The notes below the pieces were generated by a model. It saw only the letters and a list, made by a program, of their open reading frames with translations, was not told the origin of the DNA and did no database searches. 64,000 nt of DNA, taken from positions 3,186 to 67,185 of the forward strand of contig CAXSBL010000006.1 in assembly GCA_964235515.1 (NCBI GenBank), read 5' to 3'. Origin of the DNA: an uncultured Bryocella sp. GTDB lineage: Bacteria > Acidobacteriota > Terriglobia > Terriglobales > Acidobacteriaceae. Made by a program: the position numbers and the translations under genes. Positions 11,320 through 17,068 of this stretch are shown here, in pieces. Positions within the stretch are counted from its first letter, which is position 1; each line of letters starts with the position of its first letter.

Positions 11320-12105
11320 TCAGAGCGAGAGTAGATTCACCCACTCTGACGGATGATTGGACCAGAGATCCGGGGTCGCGTCTTTAAGGGCCTTGGGAGC
11401 CAGTCCGTAACTGCAACCCAGACTGCGAACGCCGCAGCGTCTAGCGGTTTCAACATCCACATCGGAGTCGCCGATCATGACCACTGACTCTGGCAGGATC
11501 TCCTCCCGTTCTGGGGAGGTCTGAGGCAAACGTGCATTGGCGTCCTGGATGATGGCCTGCAGACCCTCCGGATCGGGTTTCTTGGCGAAAGAGTCACCTC
11601 CATAAATAGCGAAGAAAAAGGTTTCGAGTCCAAGTGCAGCGCAGATCTCGAGAGAAGGGCGAACAGGTTTGTTCGTCAATACAGCCATTGGCAGGTCCGG
11701 GTGCCGAAAGCGAAGGTGCTGTAGCGCCTCAGCCACGCCAGGGTAGACCTTCGTATTGTCCAGCTTGTGGTCTCGGTAATATTCGAGAAAGTATTGGAAC
11801 GTCCGGTCAAACAGATCCTTTGCCTCCTCTGTGTCTGGCGAGGTGACATGGAGGCTGGCGGTTAAGGCACGACGCATGAGTGTTGCCGCACCATGTCCAA
11901 TAAAGCTTGTGATCTGAAGAGGCGAAAGTTGCCTTCGCCCTGCGTAGAGCAGGGCTGCATTTACGGAGTTGCAAAGATCCGTAGAGGAGTCGATCAGCGT
12001 GCCGTCCAAATCAAAGACCAACAAACGCACCGGTGGCGAGGGTAACTGCGGGTTGGGCTTAGGTTCGCTTACGTTCGACACCCTGCTGGCGGTAACGGCC
12101 ATCAT
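11320..12105 (-). CDS. HAD-family phosphatase (phosphoglycolate phosphatase-like)
   Basis: FDLDGTLIDS motif I, VLTNKP, KKPDP, MIGDSDVD. Confidence 0.85.
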   Translation of the reverse strand: MMAVTASRVSNVSEPKPNPQLPSPPVRLLVFDLDGTLIDSSTDLCNSVNAALLYAGRRQLSPLQITSFIGHGAATLMRRALTASLHVTSPDTEEAKDLFDRTFQYFLEYYRDHKLDNTKVYPGVAEALQHLRFRHPDLPMAVLTNKPVRPSLEICAALGLETFFFAIYGGDSFAKKPDPEGLQAIIQDANARLPQTSPEREEILPESVVMIGDSDVDVETARRCGVRSLGCSYGLAPKALKDATPDLWSNHPSEWVNLLSL

Positions 12106-12716
12106 GCGTATTTCCGCAGCATTCCTAAGACACGACCCTGGATGCTTACATTCGCAGCAGGAGCGTAGATGGGCGCCATCTCGACGTTGGAGGGTTGCAG
12201 CCGCACAAGCCCGCCCTCGCGATAAAAACGCTTCAGGGTCGCGTCAGCACCGTCCACGAGAGCCACAACGATCTCACCTTCACGCGCAGTGCGTGTACGC
12301 TCCACCAACACGAAATCTCCCGAGACGATATGTTCGTCCCGCATGGAGTCACCCCGCACCTCCAGCGCAAATACTTCACGTGCGCCAATAATGTCGCCTA
12401 GTGAAATCGTCTCTGCCGTCTCGATGGCTTCCACGGGACGACCGGCAGCTATTCGCCCGAGCAAGGGAAGACGATCCCCACTCCCGCCGCTGCGACGCGT
12501 GTTTCGTTGAGGAAGAACGTCAATCGATCGGCTTCGGTTGTGGGCACGTTGCAGCAAACCCTTTTCCTGCAGATTCGTGATGTGTTTGTGCACGGTAGCT
12601 AAGGAATTGAGGCCCAGCCCGGTTGCGATTTCTTCATAAGACGGGGAGTAGCCGTTGCTTGTGGTGAATTCGGAGAGAAAGTCCAGAACCTCTTTCTGTC
12701 TGCGCGTGATAGCCAT
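12102..12716 (-). CDS. lexA: LexA SOS repressor
   Basis: Winged-HTH with YSPSYEEIA, GRIAAG cleavage site, GDSM catalytic Ser, TLKR catalytic Lys. Confidence 0.97.
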   Translation of the reverse strand: MAITRRQKEVLDFLSEFTTSNGYSPSYEEIATGLGLNSLATVHKHITNLQEKGLLQRAHNRSRSIDVLPQRNTRRSGGSGDRLPLLGRIAAGRPVEAIETAETISLGDIIGAREVFALEVRGDSMRDEHIVSGDFVLVERTRTAREGEIVVALVDGADATLKRFYREGGLVRLQPSNVEMAPIYAPAANVSIQGRVLGMLRKYA

Positions 12717-12730
12717 TTCGCGATTGTAGC

Positions 12731-12745
12731 GAATAAAAAGCGAAC
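12731..12745 (-). promoter_or_regulatory. Probable LexA box (GTTC-N7-ATTC)
   Basis: + strand GAAT-AAAAAGC-GAAC, 14 bp upstream of the lexA ATG; one mismatch to the GTTC-N7-GTTC direct repeat known for alphaproteobacterial and Acidobacterium LexA. Confidence 0.7.
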
Positions 12746-12943
12746 TGCAAGCGGGAAGTTGATCAAGTTGGTTCTTTAGATTTCCCGAATCCGAACTGAC
12801 CTACCTGTTCCCATTTTGGGCCAGGAAAATGAGCCGACTTCACAGAAAAGCGGCCCAAGGAACACAGGATTGGTGAATGCTTAGAAAGAAGGCTGGCTGG
12901 GTGGCGCCCCTCCAGAGCAATTTGGGTACGCCGGAGTGAGCAC

Positions 12944-13645
12944 ATGAGAGTTCTTATCGTGGAAGATGACCAGGCACTAGGCAAATTCTTGTGTAAAGGG
13001 CTAGAGGTACAGGGCCACAACACGGAGTGGGCAAGCGATGGTGAGGCGGCGCTCGACGCCGCACGCCGGCAAGACCCCGATCTGCTTATTTTGGATCTGA
13101 GCCTTCCCAAGAAAGATGGCATCGAGGTTCTGGAGGAGCTCCGAACGTGGGCCACCTCGATGTCAATCGTGGTTCTTACCGGCCGCAACAATGTGGAAGA
13201 GCGTGTCAGGTGTCTCAACCTTGGTGCGGATGATTGCCTGCTGAAGCCGTTCAGCTTTCATGAGCTAATCGCGCGTTGCAACGCCATCGCGCGCCGGCGG
13301 GGCGTGGGTGCGGTATCCAGGTTGAACCATGGACCGATCGCGATGGATCTGCTCAGCCGGAAAGTGTGGCATAACGGAAAACTGATCGAGCTAACCGGCA
13401 AGGAGTTCGCCCTCTTGGAATACATGGTTCGCCGGGGGGGCGAATGCTGCTCACGGGAGGACCTTCTGCGGGATCTGTGGCAGGTAAGGGCTGAAGCTGT
13501 GACGAATGTTGTGGATGTATACGTGAACTACCTTCGCAAGAAACTTACTCCGGCCCTGCCTGAAGACGGAGCGAAGGCTCCGCTGATCGAAACGGTGCGA
13601 GGTGCGGGGTATCGGCTCACAAATCTGAAGCAAACCGCGGCTTAG
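12944..13645 (+). CDS. OmpR-family response regulator
   Basis: MRVLIVEDD, LLILDLSLP (phospho-Asp), GADDCLLKPF, wHTH with VDVYVNYLRKKL and IETVRGAGY. Confidence 0.92.
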   Translation: MRVLIVEDDQALGKFLCKGLEVQGHNTEWASDGEAALDAARRQDPDLLILDLSLPKKDGIEVLEELRTWATSMSIVVLTGRNNVEERVRCLNLGADDCLLKPFSFHELIARCNAIARRRGVGAVSRLNHGPIAMDLLSRKVWHNGKLIELTGKEFALLEYMVRRGGECCSREDLLRDLWQVRAEAVTNVVDVYVNYLRKKLTPALPEDGAKAPLIETVRGAGYRLTNLKQTAA

Positions 13646-13685
13646 ACAGCGGTCTCCTACGCAGAGCAGTAGAGGAGGATCAACA

Positions 13686-13928
13686 GTGGATCGAATTTAC
13701 GGCATTGAAGACACGTGTGCTTTGTTGGAAGAGGAACTACATAACCTCGCCCAACCCCTGACCAGCCTCCAGTGTCGGTTAGAGATTGGACTTCTGCTGG
13801 GCGACGAGGTCTCCGCGCGCGAGGCTCTGCAGGAGAGCCTGCAGGAGTTGAAACGTGTGCTCGCAGCGGTTTCGCGCATGCGGCATTCGTTGCGCCTGCA
13901 ACCCCACGCTGCAAGGCGATCGGCCTGA
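13686..13928 (+). CDS. Small protein resembling a stand-alone HisKA/DHp domain
   Basis: ELHNLAQPLTSLQCRLE resembles an H-box, followed by a second amphipathic helix; stop abuts the next ATG. Confidence 0.55.
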   Translation: MDRIYGIEDTCALLEEELHNLAQPLTSLQCRLEIGLLLGDEVSAREALQESLQELKRVLAAVSRMRHSLRLQPHAARRSA

Positions 13929-15158
13929 ATGGAAAGGTGCGAGCACGTTGTCGTCGTGGCCAGCGCTGATATCAATCTGCGCCAGAGCCTCTGCCGCAGT
14001 CTGCAACGGATGCGGTGGGAGGTCCGGGAGGCGACCGGAGGCGCGGCGGCCCTAGGGTTTCTTGAGGAGTGTCGGCCTGAGGCGCTGCTCCTGGACAGCT
14101 GCTTGCCTGATCTGGAAACTGACGCGCTTGTAGAAATAGTGCAGCAGCTCTACCCCAATGTGGACCTGATTCGTTTAGATTGCCTGCCGACCGTGCAATC
14201 GCTCAAGAGCGCGAGAAGGCATGAACTGTTGCATTCCGTTCGCGAAGCTGGGTCATCCAGGACCATGGACGGAGCCATTTGGAGCCAGCGCGCCCGGTTT
14301 ACGGGTGAGGCCAAACACTCCTCTGGTTCTGCCTCTCTGACTGACGTTGAAAAACCCTCTAGTAAGCAAGAGCCGGAGGCACCACGGTGCGTTACCCTTC
14401 TGCCGGGCATGGTGGGCGATAGCGGAGCCATGCGGGAGCTCGCTCACCTGGTCCGCTTAGTGGCCCCACATGCAGCGCGCGTGTTGATCGAAGGTGAGAC
14501 AGGGGCGGGTAAAGAGCTTGTCGCCCGTGCGGTGCACACGCTGAGCGGGCGGGAGTCTAAGCCGTTTGTGGCGCTGAACTGTGCCGCGATCCCTGAAACA
14601 CTGTTGGAGGCAGAGCTTTTTGGTCACACGCGCGGAGCGTTTACGGGAGCCGTGCAGGCACGGCTGGGCCGTATCGAAGCGGCGAACGGCGGAACGCTTT
14701 TTCTGGACGAGATTGGTGAGCTGCCGCTGGCTTTGCAGGCCAAGCTCCTGCGCTTTTTGGAGAACGGTGAGCTCCAACGCATCGGGGGCAACGATACGGT
14801 GAACGTGGATGTGCGGGTCGTGTCTGCTACTCATCAATCGTTGGAAGATCTTGCCGACAAAGGAACATTTCGCCTGGACCTATACCACCGACTGGCAGTC
14901 TTCCCTGTGCAGGTTCCGCCGTTGCGGGAGCGGATGGAGGATCTTCCCATGCTCGTAGAAGAAGTGCTGCGGGTATTGGGCAGGCAGGCACCGCGCAAGC
15001 GGATCAGCCCGCTTGCACTTCAGTGCCTGATGGAGCACTCCTGGCCGGGCAACGTACGCGAGCTCCAGAATGTGCTGCAACGAGCGGTCATTCTCTCCGA
15101 CGCCCATACGGAAATTGGCGTGAGCGATCTGATGTTTGGCCGCGTCAGGCAAAGCTGA
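13929..15158 (+). CDS. Sigma54-dependent activator with atypical receiver domain and no C-terminal HTH
   Basis: GETGAGKE Walker [21 protein letters not shown] Walker [11 protein letters not shown]; ends ~25 aa after the last AAA+ motif. Confidence 0.9.
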
Positions 15159-15327
15159 TACGCCAATCATCTGAAAGATCCGCCTTGTCGCGCCGAGCAT
15201 CACCTGGTACCTCGCGGCTGATTGGGGTGGCACGACGCGGCACGTTACGCCCGATCTAGACATGGAATGGCGGCCACAACCTTCGCTTTTTGTTTGCTTA
15301 GAAATTTCTTATCTCATGTGACCAAGT

Positions 15328-15344
15328 TTGGCATGACATTTGCT
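15328..15344 (+). promoter_or_regulatory. Sigma54 -24/-12 promoter upstream of the FliA-type sigma gene
   Basis: TTGGCATGACATTTGCT: GG at 15330-31 and GC at 15342-43 separated by exactly 10 nt; GAGGAG RBS before GTG 15381. Confidence 0.75.
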
Positions 15345-15380
15345 TTTTCTTCGTGTGTAGGCGGTTGAGGAGAGTGCCCG

Positions 15381-16286
15381 GTGGCCGTAGTCACAGAGCT
15401 TCCCAAAATATCCGCCCAGCGAGGAAGAGTGATCATGACGAATGCAAATTTGACCAGCCATTGCGGTGCTTCAGTATTCGGAGAGCTGCCTGTTTCCCTG
15501 CGGAGTGCGCCTTCTGCTGCGGTGCCTAAAACCGAGGCCAACAGCCCCTTTTTGCCGAGCGCAACCCTTTTTACGCGGGAGAGCGCCACAAAGGAGAATT
15601 TGTCTCTGGTTCGCTTTCTTGCGAGGCAACTTCATGCGCGCCTTCCCCAGCACGTCGAGCTGGATGATCTCGTCTCAGCCGGCACTGTGGGATTACTCGA
15701 TGCGGTGAAGCGTTTTGATGGTGAAAAGAAGACCCAGTTCAGAAGCTATGCGCAGTACCGTATTCGTGGCGCGATGATGGATTCGCTGCGAGCAGCGGAT
15801 TGGAGCCCGCGCACCCTGCGTCGGCAGGCACGCCTTGTTGAACAAGCGAAGCAGACACTGGCGGCCCAGGGTCTTCAAGCGCCGGATGACCAGCAGACCG
15901 CCGATCAGATGGGTGTTCCCCTGGCAACCTATCGGCAGTTGGTGAGCGATTTGAAGCGGCTGGAATTGGGCAGTCTGCAGACCGAGCGTCATGAAGATGC
16001 AGTAGAACAGGTGATTGATTCGGTTCCTGCGCCCGCCAGCGAGGATCCGCTCTTCCTTTGTCTGCAGGGAGAGACCTGGGAGTCTTTGAAGACAGCGATC
16101 GAGGCGCTGCCTGAAAAGGAACGACTCGTCTTGAACCTCTACTACTACGAGGAACTGACGATGAAGGAGATTTCGGAGGTTCTGGGCGTGGTGGGATCCC
16201 GTGTATCGCAACTGCATGCCTCGGCAGTTCAGCGGCTGAGGACCTCTTTCTGCGCGGGCACTCAGCAAGCCAGGCGCAAAGCTTAA
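15381..16286 (+). CDS. fliA: FliA/WhiG-family RNA polymerase sigma factor (sigma28)
   Basis: DDLVSAGTVGLLDAVKRFD, FRSYAQYRIRGAMMDSLRAADWSPR, LYYYEELTMKEISEVLGVVGSRVSQLH; ~65-aa N-terminal extension if the GTG start is right. Confidence 0.9.
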   Translation: MAVVTELPKISAQRGRVIMTNANLTSHCGASVFGELPVSLRSAPSAAVPKTEANSPFLPSATLFTRESATKENLSLVRFLARQLHARLPQHVELDDLVSAGTVGLLDAVKRFDGEKKTQFRSYAQYRIRGAMMDSLRAADWSPRTLRRQARLVEQAKQTLAAQGLQAPDDQQTADQMGVPLATYRQLVSDLKRLELGSLQTERHEDAVEQVIDSVPAPASEDPLFLCLQGETWESLKTAIEALPEKERLVLNLYYYEELTMKEISEVLGVVGSRVSQLHASAVQRLRTSFCAGTQQARRKA

Positions 16287-16354
16287 GCTGATGGGTCCAG
16301 CGCTGCTGGCGACGAGCCTAATTGTTAGGTTGTCGAAAAATCTGGCCTAGTTGC

Positions 16355-16381
16355 TAATGTTTTCGAGTTTGTGGCCGTTAA
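16355..16381 (+). promoter_or_regulatory. Sigma28-type promoter
   Basis: TAAT-N15-GCCGTTAA versus consensus TAAA-N15-GCCGATAA; one mismatch per box, exact spacing. Confidence 0.65.
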
Positions 16382-16401
16382 TACAAGGAGAGAGGCCATG
16401 A

Positions 16402-16608
16402 ATGAACAAAGGTCCGGTACAGCCAAAGATGGAAACGGTCGAGCTAGCCCTGGAAGCGCGGGAACTTCGCTCCAGGTGCCTTGCTGAGTTGAAGGAGCGA
16501 GTGCAGCAGGGTTTCTACAACATACCCTCGCACGCGCTTGCCGAAAAGCTTCTGCTCGCGGCGCTGCAGGAGTGTCGGGCCGGAGGTTTAATCGGGCCGG
16601 AGGTTTAA
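16402..16608 (+). CDS. FlgM-like anti-sigma28 factor
   Basis: RSRCLAELKERVQQGFYNIPSHALAEKLL matches the FlgM C-terminal pattern (R..l..lk..i..G.Y.v....iA.kll); directly after fliA, with AGAGG RBS. Confidence 0.65.
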   Translation: MNKGPVQPKMETVELALEARELRSRCLAELKERVQQGFYNIPSHALAEKLLLAALQECRAGGLIGPEV

Positions 16609-16801: not shown

Positions 16802-17068
16802 GTGTTGGCACCTGCAAAGAAAATCGACATTATCGGTAAATTTCGCACCCATGACTCGGATACGGGAAGTCCTGAGGTGCAGATTGCGATTCTCAGTGAG
16901 CGTATTGGCGAACTGACGGAGCATTTTAAGACACACAAGAAGGATCATGGCTCGCGTCGTGGGCTTTTGATGCTGGTTTCCAAGCGCCGGCGCCTTCTGG
17001 ATTATCTCAAGACGACGGATGGTGATCGCTATCGCGAAGTGATCGGCAAACTGGGCATCCGTAAGTAG
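16802..17068 (+). CDS. rpsO: 30S ribosomal protein S15
   Basis: [42 protein letters not shown]. Confidence 0.98.

Follow-up and report, generated by a model that had tools for sequence, protein, structure and literature searches.

Polar flagella in Vibrio cholerae, Legionella and Pseudomonas are controlled by σ54-to-σ28 hierarchies (FlrA/FleQ, FlrBC/FleSR, FliA and FlgM), and in Vibrio and Legionella fliA is itself under a σ54 promoter. The fliA gene of Helicobacter pylori, in contrast to what is predicted for the one described here, is not σ54-dependent. In Streptomyces, WhiG, a sigma factor of the FliA/WhiG family, has a non-flagellar regulon and is paired with the anti-sigma factor RsiG, with c-di-GMP. 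For Chlamydia, we know of no σ54-to-fliA wiring and no adjacent flgM. ChpT of Caulobacter and Spo0B of Bacillus are kinase-derived histidine phosphotransferases that act between receiver proteins. The bEBPs of the FlgR/CtcC group (group 5) lack a DNA-binding domain (PMC7175178, Table 1). Our literature searches found no description of flagellar regulation in Acidobacteria.

The window, the whole 64-kb stretch of DNA analysed here, comes from a 91-contig MAG from a lichen metagenome (G000). Profile matches confirm the gene order proposed in an earlier sequence-only reading: between lexA (12102..12716, – strand; LexA_DNA_bind and Peptidase_S24) and the conserved right neighbour rpsO (16802..17068, + strand; Ribosomal_S15) lie genes for an OmpR-type regulator (RR6), a DHp-only protein (DHp6), a σ54 activator (EBP6), FliA and a FlgM-like protein, all on the + strand. 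The left neighbour, lexA, serves as a synteny anchor, occupying the same position in G117 (same genus), G058 (another genus), G106, G121 (the closest sequenced species) and conspecific strains. All five cassette ORFs are intact in the present genome, G121, G117 and several conspecific strains, and their dN/dS values (RR6, 0.06; DHp6, 0.23; EBP6, 0.14; fliA, 0.18; flgM, 0.44 over 61 codons) indicate purifying selection. A tblastn search of the window with 26 flagellar proteins from the genome's own clusters returned no further flagellar gene, in agreement with the reading's description of 64 kb otherwise free of them. We infer the operon structure and promoter use of the cassette from the DNA.

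FliA (15435..16286, + strand; 283 aa) scores 230 bits against TIGR02479 (cut-off 189.6) and matches both Sigma70_r2 and Sigma70_r4, placing it in the FliA/WhiG family, and it is the only gene of that family above the cut-off in the whole genome. Its start is likely the ATG at 15435, behind a GAGGAAG ribosome-binding site; a GTG at 15381 was disfavoured relative to this ATG, and gene calls in conspecific strains give 283 aa. Ahead of fliA lies a predicted σ54 (–24/–12) promoter, TGGCATGACATTTGCT (15329..15344, + strand), which agrees with the consensus (GG-N10-GC, TGGCAC-N5-TTGCW context) at 11 of 12 positions and is the single σ54 motif match in 64 kb (0.10 expected). This block is nearly invariant relative to G121 and the sequence upstream of it has diverged; GG-N10-GC sites also precede fliA in G117, G042 and G116, and flgB in G058. 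The motif, the presence of RpoN (with its RpoN box, on contig C38) and the adjacent activator together point to σ54-dependent transcription of fliA.

A σ28-type promoter, TAAT-N15-GCCGTTAA (16355..16381, + strand), is predicted ahead of flgM. It is the single σ28 motif match in 64 kb (0.01 expected) and is conserved in G121, G117 and G116, and a nearly identical extended motif precedes motA on contig C9. Both promoters claimed by the sequence-only reading thus hold up as sole matches in the window with counterparts in relatives, and its wiring, from σ54 activator through σ54 promoter, fliA and σ28 promoter to flgM, is supported here and in relatives. The FlgM-like ORF (16402..16608, + strand; 68 aa) reaches the gathering score for the σ28-binding C-terminal region marginally (PF04316, 25.5 bits; cut-off 25) and is the only PF04316 match in the whole genome; orthologous ORFs 3′ of fliA score 40.7 bits (G116) and 34.9 bits (G106). 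Like FlgM of H. pylori and Campylobacter jejuni, the predicted protein is short, with about 17 residues ahead of the σ28-binding region. An exact 17-nt tandem duplication (TCGGGCCGGAGGTTTAA in two copies; 16575..16608, + strand) shifts the frame, alters the C-terminal tail and ends flgM at 68 aa. Three relatives lack the duplication; without it, conspecific strains have an ORF of 106 aa and G121 one of 61 aa, so that lengths of 61, 68 and 106 aa occur among close relatives.

Upstream of fliA, RR6 (12944..13645, + strand; 233 aa) is an OmpR/CusR-type response regulator with a receiver domain (PF00072, 98 bits) and a winged-helix output domain (Trans_reg_C, PF00486, 80 bits). The canonical phospho-acceptor residues can be read in it (acidic pair D8/D9, D51, T79 and K101), assigning it to the OmpR/PhoB family; its best NCBIfam match, a heavy-metal response regulator subfamily, scores under that model's cut-off. 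A candidate repeat upstream (GGCACG-N4-GGCACG) has no conserved counterpart in G121, and no RR6 site emerged.

DHp6 (13686..13928, + strand; 80 aa) has no Pfam match at 0.01. At a laxer cut-off the protein alone scores a weak 15.8 bits against HisKA, under the threshold of 26.9; its homologues score above the threshold, the family profile matches solved histidine kinases with an E-value of 2.6e-18, and the AF2 model (pLDDT 79) folds as a helical hairpin. H19, Q23 and P24 are invariant across 12 homologues, marking H19 as the predicted phospho-acceptor histidine of a DHp domain. A database of 5.8 billion proteins contains 12 small, unnamed homologues; long homologues (222–267 aa) combine HisKA with a mostly degenerate CA domain, and one of seven matches HATPase_c. 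DHp6 itself stops after the second DHp helix and has no catalytic ATP-binding domain, and we therefore rejected it as a histidine kinase. With a phospho-accepting histidine and no ATP-binding domain, it would instead be a phosphotransferase or phosphatase. Its TGA stop abuts the EBP6 ATG, a junction kept in G121.

EBP6 (13929..15158, + strand; 409 aa) matches Sigma54_activat (PF00158, 228 bits) and AAA_lid_14, and its GAFTGA, Walker A and Walker B motifs, read from the sequence, mark a σ54-interacting AAA+ domain. The protein finishes just past the lid domain with no match to HTH_8, which is present, in contrast, in FleR9 of the same genome; EBP6 is accordingly of the group-5 (FlgR/CtcC) type in having no DNA-binding domain. 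Its receiver match is weak (E 0.003, profile positions 7–74 of 111): the N-terminal domain aligns with β1–β4 of NtrC only, α4-β5-α5 is missing, and the pseudo-receiver keeps Asp56 and lacks the DD pair, Thr and Lys of a phosphorylatable receiver. These losses make phosphotransfer from DHp6 to EBP6 doubtful, and DHp6 may act on RR6 only, or through binding.

Comparison with described systems brings out both likenesses and differences. As in polar-flagellar hierarchies, early and middle genes would be RpoN-dependent and FliA/FlgM would govern flagellin and motor genes; fliA is under a predicted σ54 promoter, as in Vibrio and Legionella, and a FleSR-like kinase/EBP pair is encoded in the core flagellar cluster on C9. 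Unlike in those hierarchies, fliA stands beside an HTH-less activator whose pseudo-receiver is truncated, the partners of that activator are an OmpR-type regulator and a DHp-only protein, and fliA lies 0.8 Mb from flhA rather than in a flhA-flhF-flhG-fliA operon. DHp6 may be compared with ChpT and Spo0B in its DHp hairpin, conserved histidine, degenerate or missing ATP-binding domain and position between receiver proteins, although in its 80 aa the second domain is lost altogether. WhiG belongs to the same family as the cassette FliA (TIGR02479, FliA_WhiG) and provides a precedent outside motility, but WhiG-RsiG involves no FlgM and no σ54 input. EBP6 resembles FlgR of the FlgS-FlgR systems of H. 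pylori and C. jejuni in being a flagellar σ54 activator with receiver and AAA+ domains and no DNA-binding domain (PMC7175178); however, the FlgR receiver is canonical and phosphorylated by FlgS, whereas EBP6 has a degenerate receiver and an adjacent partner without a kinase domain. The Chlamydia CtcB-CtcC/σ54 and σ28 system (PMC7482065) keeps an HTH-less activator and a FliA-family sigma factor without flagella, a parallel to the flagellum-less relatives described below, but its kinase, CtcB, is complete and the present genome, unlike Chlamydia, has flagellar genes. The trio of OmpR-type regulator, kinase-derived DHp protein and HTH-less activator with a pseudo-receiver is a variant unreported in known hierarchies, and the DHp protein of the conserved trio has often lost the ATP-binding domain.

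The sequence-only reading had seen a self-contained cascade without a flagellum and had named a full flagellar regulon with σ28 promoters elsewhere as what would refute it. Such a regulon is present, as are rpoN and both core and late clusters elsewhere on the chromosome, so that by its own terms the reading is wrong for this genome, and an orphan σ28 cascade lacking export and structural genes is rejected. A core cluster of about 25 kb (C9:39013-64228) carries motAB, genes for a response regulator, an EBP, a PAS kinase and a FleR-like EBP with HTH_8, and flgBC, followed by fliEFGHI, fliK, flgDE, fliOPQR, flhBA and fliMN; a late cluster (C19:6983-17847) includes the flagellin gene. Together the genome encodes FlhA, FliP/Q/R, FlhB, FliF/G/M/N, FlgB-L, FliC/D/S and MotAB. 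One predicted σ28 promoter lies 61 nt 5′ of the start of the flagellin gene and another precedes motA; with that of flgM, these TAAA-N15-GCCGATAA-type promoters are the putative cognate sites of FliA. A predicted σ54 promoter before flgF agrees with the consensus at 12 of 12 positions. In a near-identical strain (FliG 99% identical) assembled as one contig of 4,032,933 bp, the cassette (3.016–3.030 Mb) and flagellar core (3.822–3.829 Mb) are about 0.8 Mb apart.

With a full flagellar gene set at this distance, the cassette is very probably a detached regulatory unit of a normal σ54/σ28 flagellar hierarchy, controlling an ordinary flagellum. In such a scheme, EBP6, being FlgR/CtcC-like, would act from solution to activate σ54-RNA polymerase at the fliA promoter and probably at further flagellar σ54 promoters, for example that before flgF. 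Its activity would be set by the co-transcribed RR6 and DHp6, the latter serving as a ChpT/Spo0B-like phosphotransferase or phosphatase, and the PAS kinase of the C9 core cluster is a candidate for the upstream kinase. Besides flgM, whose product provides negative feedback, FliA would transcribe motAB and the flagellin gene, possibly along with some genes outside the flagellum; FlgM would keep FliA inactive until the basal body is competent.

Relatives without flagella complicate this picture. Fifteen FliA-positive genomes of the family lack FlhA and FliP; ten of these are at least 97% complete, and 13 of the 15 also lack flagellin. The RR-HK-like-EBP-FliA order is intact in two of them (G011 and G116), and FlgM scores above the Pfam cut-off in G116 and G106. 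The closest sequenced species, G121, lacks FlhA and FliG and has an intact cassette with conserved promoters. Their retention of the cassette suggests a role that may extend beyond flagellar control. The reading's repurposed module is not established for the present genome and is plausible in these relatives. We suggest tentatively that the cassette is semi-autonomous, outlives the flagellum and remains functional in flagellum-less Acidobacteriaceae such as G121, G011, G116 and G106, where its regulon would be non-flagellar and might comprise surface proteins; in the present genome it would serve both outputs. A dual-use or repurposed cassette, maintained for a main or extra output outside the flagellum (surface or adhesin-like proteins, for example) with flagellar control in second place, appears rather unlikely. 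Besides the flagellum-less genomes, it draws on CTAAACATTT...GCCGAT sites that in the present genome precede genes for an NHL/Big_3_5 giant protein, a beta-propeller/phosphoesterase protein and a small membrane protein. These candidate sites, however, are motif matches, exact-consensus site counts in relatives equal those of a reversed-pattern control, and FliA is the only σ28 of the present genome, where canonical flagellar targets bear its promoter. Moreover, decay is seen in some relatives (frameshifts in G042, partial cassettes in other genomes), and recent flagellar loss could account for retention of the cassette.

The detached regulatory unit appears to have a composite history. In G058, lexA is followed by RR-DHp-EBP and then by flgB...flhA-fliA-fliMN, a complete flagellar cluster. 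Across the family, fliA stands immediately after flhA in 50 of 54 FlhA-positive genomes; the present genome and G117, in which cassette and flagellar cluster are likewise split, are the sole well-assembled exceptions. FlhA of the present genome falls inside lineage B (support 100/99), whereas its FliA, a long branch of poor resolution, does not group with FliA clade B (clade support 100/100); an AU test rejects placement within clade B (p 0.006, for a group picked after viewing the tree). Since the two trees disagree, the flagellum and its σ28 seem to go back to two different ancestral sets of genes. A lexA-linked flagellar supercluster may have shed its structural genes, keeping its regulatory head and fliA-flgM, and the retained regulators would now serve a second-lineage flagellar set that had lost its own fliA. 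The reading's description of the regulatory ends of a deleted flagellar locus therefore stands as history, given the synteny in G058, but not in the sense of decay, given the dN/dS values. That the cassette is a functionless relic is very improbable: the structural genes that follow the same trio in G058 are missing at this locus and flgM carries a frameshifting duplication, but the ORFs are intact and under purifying selection, both promoters are conserved, and the genome, complete in flagellar genes, has its sole fliA and flgM here. That the flagellar contigs were misbinned from another organism, leaving the cassette's own genome without a flagellum, is scarcely credible despite the fragmented lichen-metagenome MAG and the lack of FlhA in the closest species, because the near-identical strain bears cassette and core on its 4.03-Mb contig, the C9 flank is 82–87% identical to G121 in nucleotides (92% in amino acids for a neighbouring gene), C6, C9 and C19 match the bin in GC content and tetranucleotide use, and G117 is split in the same way.

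For the present genome, these results correct the earlier picture: far from being orphaned, the cascade very probably controls a flagellum encoded elsewhere, and a 64-kb view can mislead. The genome seemingly runs the flagellum of one lineage with the σ28 module of another, a clear illustration that regulatory modules can evolve apart from structural genes. Across the family, fliA-flgM, often with the whole cassette, has repeatedly been kept in relatives that have no flagellum, among them the closest sequenced species. If the cassette does outlive the flagellum, FlgM in these relatives would need some form of control other than export by a flagellar apparatus. These relatives offer a natural system for studying the function of σ28 and FlgM without a flagellum.

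The interval between lexA (12102-12716, minus strand) and rpsO (16802-17068, plus strand) contains five plus-strand ORFs, here called the cassette. RR6 (12944-13645) is a response regulator of the OmpR type that carries the Pfam domains REC and Trans_reg_C and all of the canonical phospho-acceptor residues in its sequence; its best NCBIfam match, to the heavy-metal regulator subfamily, falls under the model's cut-off. DHp6 (13686-13928), an 80-aa DHp-only protein, gave no match in a Pfam search at E 0.01, and was matched by HisKA (15.8 bits) at a relaxed threshold only. EBP6 (13929-15158), a 409-aa sigma54 activator, matches Sigma54_activat (228 bits) and AAA_lid_14, with a weak and partial receiver match and no HTH_8 in the Pfam scan. 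FliA (283 aa; TIGR02479, 230 bits vs. a cut-off of 189.6) likely starts at the ATG at 15435, which is preceded by a GAGGAAG ribosome-binding site, and is also called as 283 aa in conspecific strains. The flgM-like ORF (16402-16608) scores 25.5 bits with PF04316 FlgM (cut-off 25). A sigma54 motif, TGGCATGACATTTGCT, lies at 15329-15344 and a sigma28 motif, TAAT-N15-GCCGTTAA, at 16355-16381, each being the sole match in 64 kb (0.10 and 0.01 expected, respectively). These profile matches and unique motifs confirm the five ORFs and two promoters described in the sequence-only reading. Its statement that the 64 kb holds no other flagellar genes is also borne out for the flagellar proteins of the genome's own clusters, which matched nothing in the window beyond the cassette. 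The wiring that it proposed, from the sigma54 activator through the sigma54 promoter, fliA and the sigma28 promoter to flgM, holds, and the sites recur in relatives: GG-N10-GC sites lie 5′ of fliA in G117, G042, and G116 (less clear in G011), and sigma28-type sites lie 5′ of flgM in G117, G116, and G121, the closest sequenced species. A search for RNA runs containing the window sequence found none.

The cascade had been taken to be self-contained, with no flagellum to serve. A whole-genome search for flagellar genes, rpoN and sigma28 sites instead recovered a full regulon in this genome (G000; 3.41 Mb in 91 contigs, 94.7% complete, from a lichen metagenome). On C9 (39013-64228), ORF prediction followed by Pfam searches delineated a core cluster that begins with motA, motB, RR9 (OmpR-type), EBP9 (HTH-less), a PAS histidine kinase, and a FleR-like activator with HTH_8 (FleR9), continues with flgB, flgC, fliE, fliF, fliG, fliH, fliI, a fliK-like gene, flgD, flgE, and a fliN-like gene, and ends with fliO, fliP, fliQ, fliR, flhB, flhA, fliM, fliN, and an HDOD protein gene. 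A late cluster at C19:6983-17847 comprises flgF, flgG, flgA, flgH, flgI, a flgJ-like gene, flgK, flgL, the flagellin gene, fliD, and fliS, with flagellin assigned by Flagellin_N matches and the remainder identified from translations. RpoN, with its RpoN box, is encoded on C38, and the only FliA-family gene above the cut-off and the only PF04316 match in the genome are the fliA and flgM of the window. Sigma28 promoters were found at the flagellin gene, where TAAG-N15-GCCGATAA stands 61 nt 5′ of the gene start, and at motA, where CTGATGTTTTCAGACTTTCTGCCGATAA has an extended motif nearly identical to that of flgM. The gene flgF, which heads the late rod/ring/hook-junction/filament cluster, has a 12/12 sigma54 promoter, TGGCACGCCGATTGCA (C19:6996-7011), directly before it. 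This set of predicted promoters fits a sigma54-to-sigma28 flagellar hierarchy. A complete regulon outside the window with sigma28 promoters is what the sequence-only reading had itself named as evidence against its view. The cassette is best read as part of such a hierarchy, and its head module, consisting of the RR, the DHp-only protein and an HTH-less activator with a pseudo-receiver, is undescribed; a literature search turned up no specific account of how flagella are regulated in Acidobacteria.

Mis-binning of the flagellar contigs into G000 is ruled out by a shared contig, the C9 flank and composition. On the 4,032,933-bp contig JASCQV010014219.1 (GCA_030012885.1), a FliG 99% identical to that of G000 is found in 3,822,072-3,829,094 and the cassette in 3,016,233-3,030,499 (BioY, DivIC, HAD, LexA / RR, EBP, FliA, S15, PNPase), placing the cassette ~0.8 Mb from the flagellar core on one chromosome. 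The two small cassette ORFs are uncalled on this contig, but gene calls for them exist on sister contigs from that study. To its left, C9 shows flanking sequence with 82-87% nucleotide identity to the G121 chromosome, a 793-aa gene near the C9 flagellar cluster has 92% amino acid identity to its G121 counterpart, and the GC content and tetranucleotide use of C6 (the contig carrying the window, at 3186-67185), C9, and C19 are consistent with the bin.

Comparison of the window with the G121 chromosome (OZ240669.1, 3.76 Mb) gave dN/dS values of 0.06 for RR6, 0.23 for DHp6, 0.14 for EBP6, 0.18 for FliA, and 0.44 for FlgM (61 codons), with dS of 0.5-0.8 across the five genes; the neighbours LexA and HAD gave 0.02 and 0.16. 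The sigma54 promoter and ~60 nt around it are nearly invariant in the EBP6-fliA spacer, the distal part of which has diverged. Together, the dN/dS values and the conserved promoters exclude a decaying relic. A GGCACG-N4-GGCACG direct repeat ~100 bp 5′ of the sigma54 promoter was discarded as a candidate site for RR6, as it is not conserved in G121. The divergent lexA-RR6 intergenic region (12717-12943) is 92% identical to that of G121, which, against a flanking-gene dS of ~0.5-0.8, indicates strong constraint, presumably from dense regulatory sites for lexA and the cassette operon. The 3′ end of flgM contains an exact 17-nt tandem duplication (TCGGGCCGGAGGTTTAA twice, 16575-16608) that is not present in three relatives and shifts the frame, giving an ORF of 68 aa here vs. 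106 aa in conspecific strains (61 aa in G121). The FlgM tail is evidently variable, and the duplication may be either genuine or introduced during assembly.

EBP6 contains the GAFTGA and Walker A/B motifs, and its C-terminus lies a few residues past the lid domain. Group-5 bEBPs, among them FlgR and CtcC, share this architecture and lack a DNA-binding domain (PMC7175178; PMC7482065), but the EBP6 receiver looks non-canonical. Its alignment to the receiver of NtrC is limited to beta1-beta4, and the domain lacks the acidic pair and the conserved Thr and Lys, retaining Asp56. EBP9 has Ala at the position of Asp56, and FleR9, unlike EBP6, carries HTH_8. RR6 and RR9 are 42% identical, and EBP6 and EBP9 are 41% identical over their full length. 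On a strain contig from the same metagenome study (L198; JASCQU010011188.1, 2648-3880), the activator is called as fragments of 138, 120, and 147 aa, which points either to a frameshift introduced by sequencing error or to an allele that is naturally broken within the population.

Homologues of DHp6 occur between regulator and activator genes, or 5′ of fliA, in many genera. Five of 12 aligned homologues, including DHp6, are short forms (ORFs of 74-121 aa), and the others (222-267 aa) contain HisKA and a C-terminal domain, with HATPase_c matched in one of the seven long forms. H19, Q23, and P24 are invariant across this alignment, and the family profile matches solved histidine kinases with E 2.6e-18. 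The AlphaFold model of DHp6 is a hairpin of two helices (pLDDT 79), for which a Foldseek search of the PDB gave no significant match (best E 0.11); DHp chains of HK853 appeared among generic hairpins (TM 0.62-0.77), which is weak support. A set of 5.8 billion proteins yielded only twelve homologues of similar size (66-85 aa), all unnamed. Because its family is kinase-derived, keeps the histidine and has repeatedly lost the ATP-binding domain, DHp6 is best read as a putative phosphotransferase or phosphatase comparable to ChpT and Spo0B. The TGA of DHp6 directly adjoins the ATG of EBP6 and this junction is identical in G121, suggesting translational coupling. Read-through of the TGA, which would join the two ORFs in the same frame across TGA-ATG, was rejected, since G121 and the strain gene calls both show this junction and two distinct ORFs. 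The 90-nt gap between RR9 and EBP9 in G000 (C9:41922-42014) contains no DHp gene, and the single DHp protein of the window may serve both the RR6/EBP6 and RR9/EBP9 modules. A DHp-like gene occupies the corresponding position in relatives (240 aa in G069, 121 aa in G017).

A survey of 121 Acidobacteriaceae genomes found FliA in 68 and FlhA in 54. Of the 54 FlhA-positive genomes, 50 have fliA immediately after flhA; the remaining four are G000, the same-genus G117, and two cases that are poor or partial. The order in G117 is lexA / RR - DHp - EBP - fliA - FlgM-like ORF ... rpsO, and its motAB-flgB...flhA-fliMN cluster is on a separate contig from the cassette. At this locus (L035, 7734-10100), ~2.6 kb separates the FlgM-like ORF from rpsO and includes an RHS/toxin-like fragment (opposite strand) and a dienelactone-hydrolase-like ORF, as judged by eye from translations. 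G058, from a different genus, has a lexA-linked RR-DHp-EBP that is directly followed by flgBC, fliEFGHI, flgDE, fliPQR, flhBA, fliA, and fliMN. The core cluster of G069 starts with motAB - RR - DHp-like - EBP - kinase - FleR - flgB, a layout like that of C9, where flhA and fliM are spaced by 42 nt without an intervening fliA. In the FlhA tree, G000 and G117 lie inside the lineage whose flhA-linked FliAs constitute clade B (support 100/99), and in the FliA tree the window FliA falls outside clade B (support 100/100). An AU test rejected its placement inside clade B (p 0.006), for a group defined post hoc and a long window branch.

The simplest reading of these data is a history of two ancestral sets. 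A lexA-linked set would have lost its structural genes, retaining the regulatory head and fliA-flgM, and a second set would have retained the structural genes but no fliA of its own. Such a history draws on the presence in the family of two flhA copies in three genomes (G041, G110, and G112) and of at least two fliA genes in thirteen FlhA-positive genomes. The G000 hierarchy is apparently of chimeric origin.

A loose sigma28 scan of the whole G000 genome gave 196 matches, the majority intragenic, and the analysis drew only on a curated set of near-consensus sites between genes. Sites of this type with an extended CTAAACATTT / CTAATGTTT -35 region are located upstream of non-flagellar genes at C49:14728-14754(-), C20:20370-20396(-), C51:4464-4490(-), and C28:41367-41393(+). 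CTAAACATTT...GCCGAT sites precede three non-flagellar genes, as motif matches alone; downstream of the C49, C20, and C51 sites are, respectively, a 1827-aa NHL and Big_3_5 repeat protein, a 944-aa beta-propeller/phosphoesterase protein, and a small membrane protein. The shared extended sites may mark a wider FliA regulon. Overall, the wiring given in the sequence-only reading stands, as does, as an inferred history, its suggestion of the regulatory ends of a deleted flagellar locus, supported by the G058 synteny and the FlhA and FliA trees; the absent flagellum, the self-contained cascade, the relic, and a module repurposed in G000 do not.

Fifteen FliA-positive genomes of the family lack both FlhA (E 1e-40) and FliP, and 13 of these also lack flagellin; completeness is at least 97% in ten. 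The RR - HK-like - EBP - FliA set is intact in G011 and G116, and partial loci are present in G118 (RR-DHp-FliA) and in G044, G047, and G054 (RR-FliA). G106 has the order lexA / FliA-FlgM ... rpsO, and the fliA locus of G042 shows apparent frameshifts. The FlgM ORF reaches 40.7 bits in G116 and 34.9 bits in G106. In another relative, G092, both FlhA copies (C12:36044-38007 and C14:217154-219129 of that genome) are broken up into two or three open frames, suggesting either flagellar genes in mid-decay or an assembly of low quality (78.7% complete). In G121 the cassette is intact and its promoters are conserved. An FlhA search of G121 gave zero matches, none of the best 120 database matches to FliG is on its chromosome, and its copy of the 793-aa C9-neighbour gene is not followed by flagellar or C9 right-flank genes.

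The orphan cascade first pictured for G000 seems, then, to exist in nature, but not in G000. The cassette-keeping relatives may have lost their flagella only recently, or a second regulon may be under FliA control. Exact TAAA-N15-GCCGATAA matches in 11 flagellum-less and 3 flagellated relatives numbered 10 vs. 11 for a reversed-pattern control, a comparison with no power, as the flagellated genomes had only 0-1. The main interest of the cassette lies in its retention in relatives without flagella.
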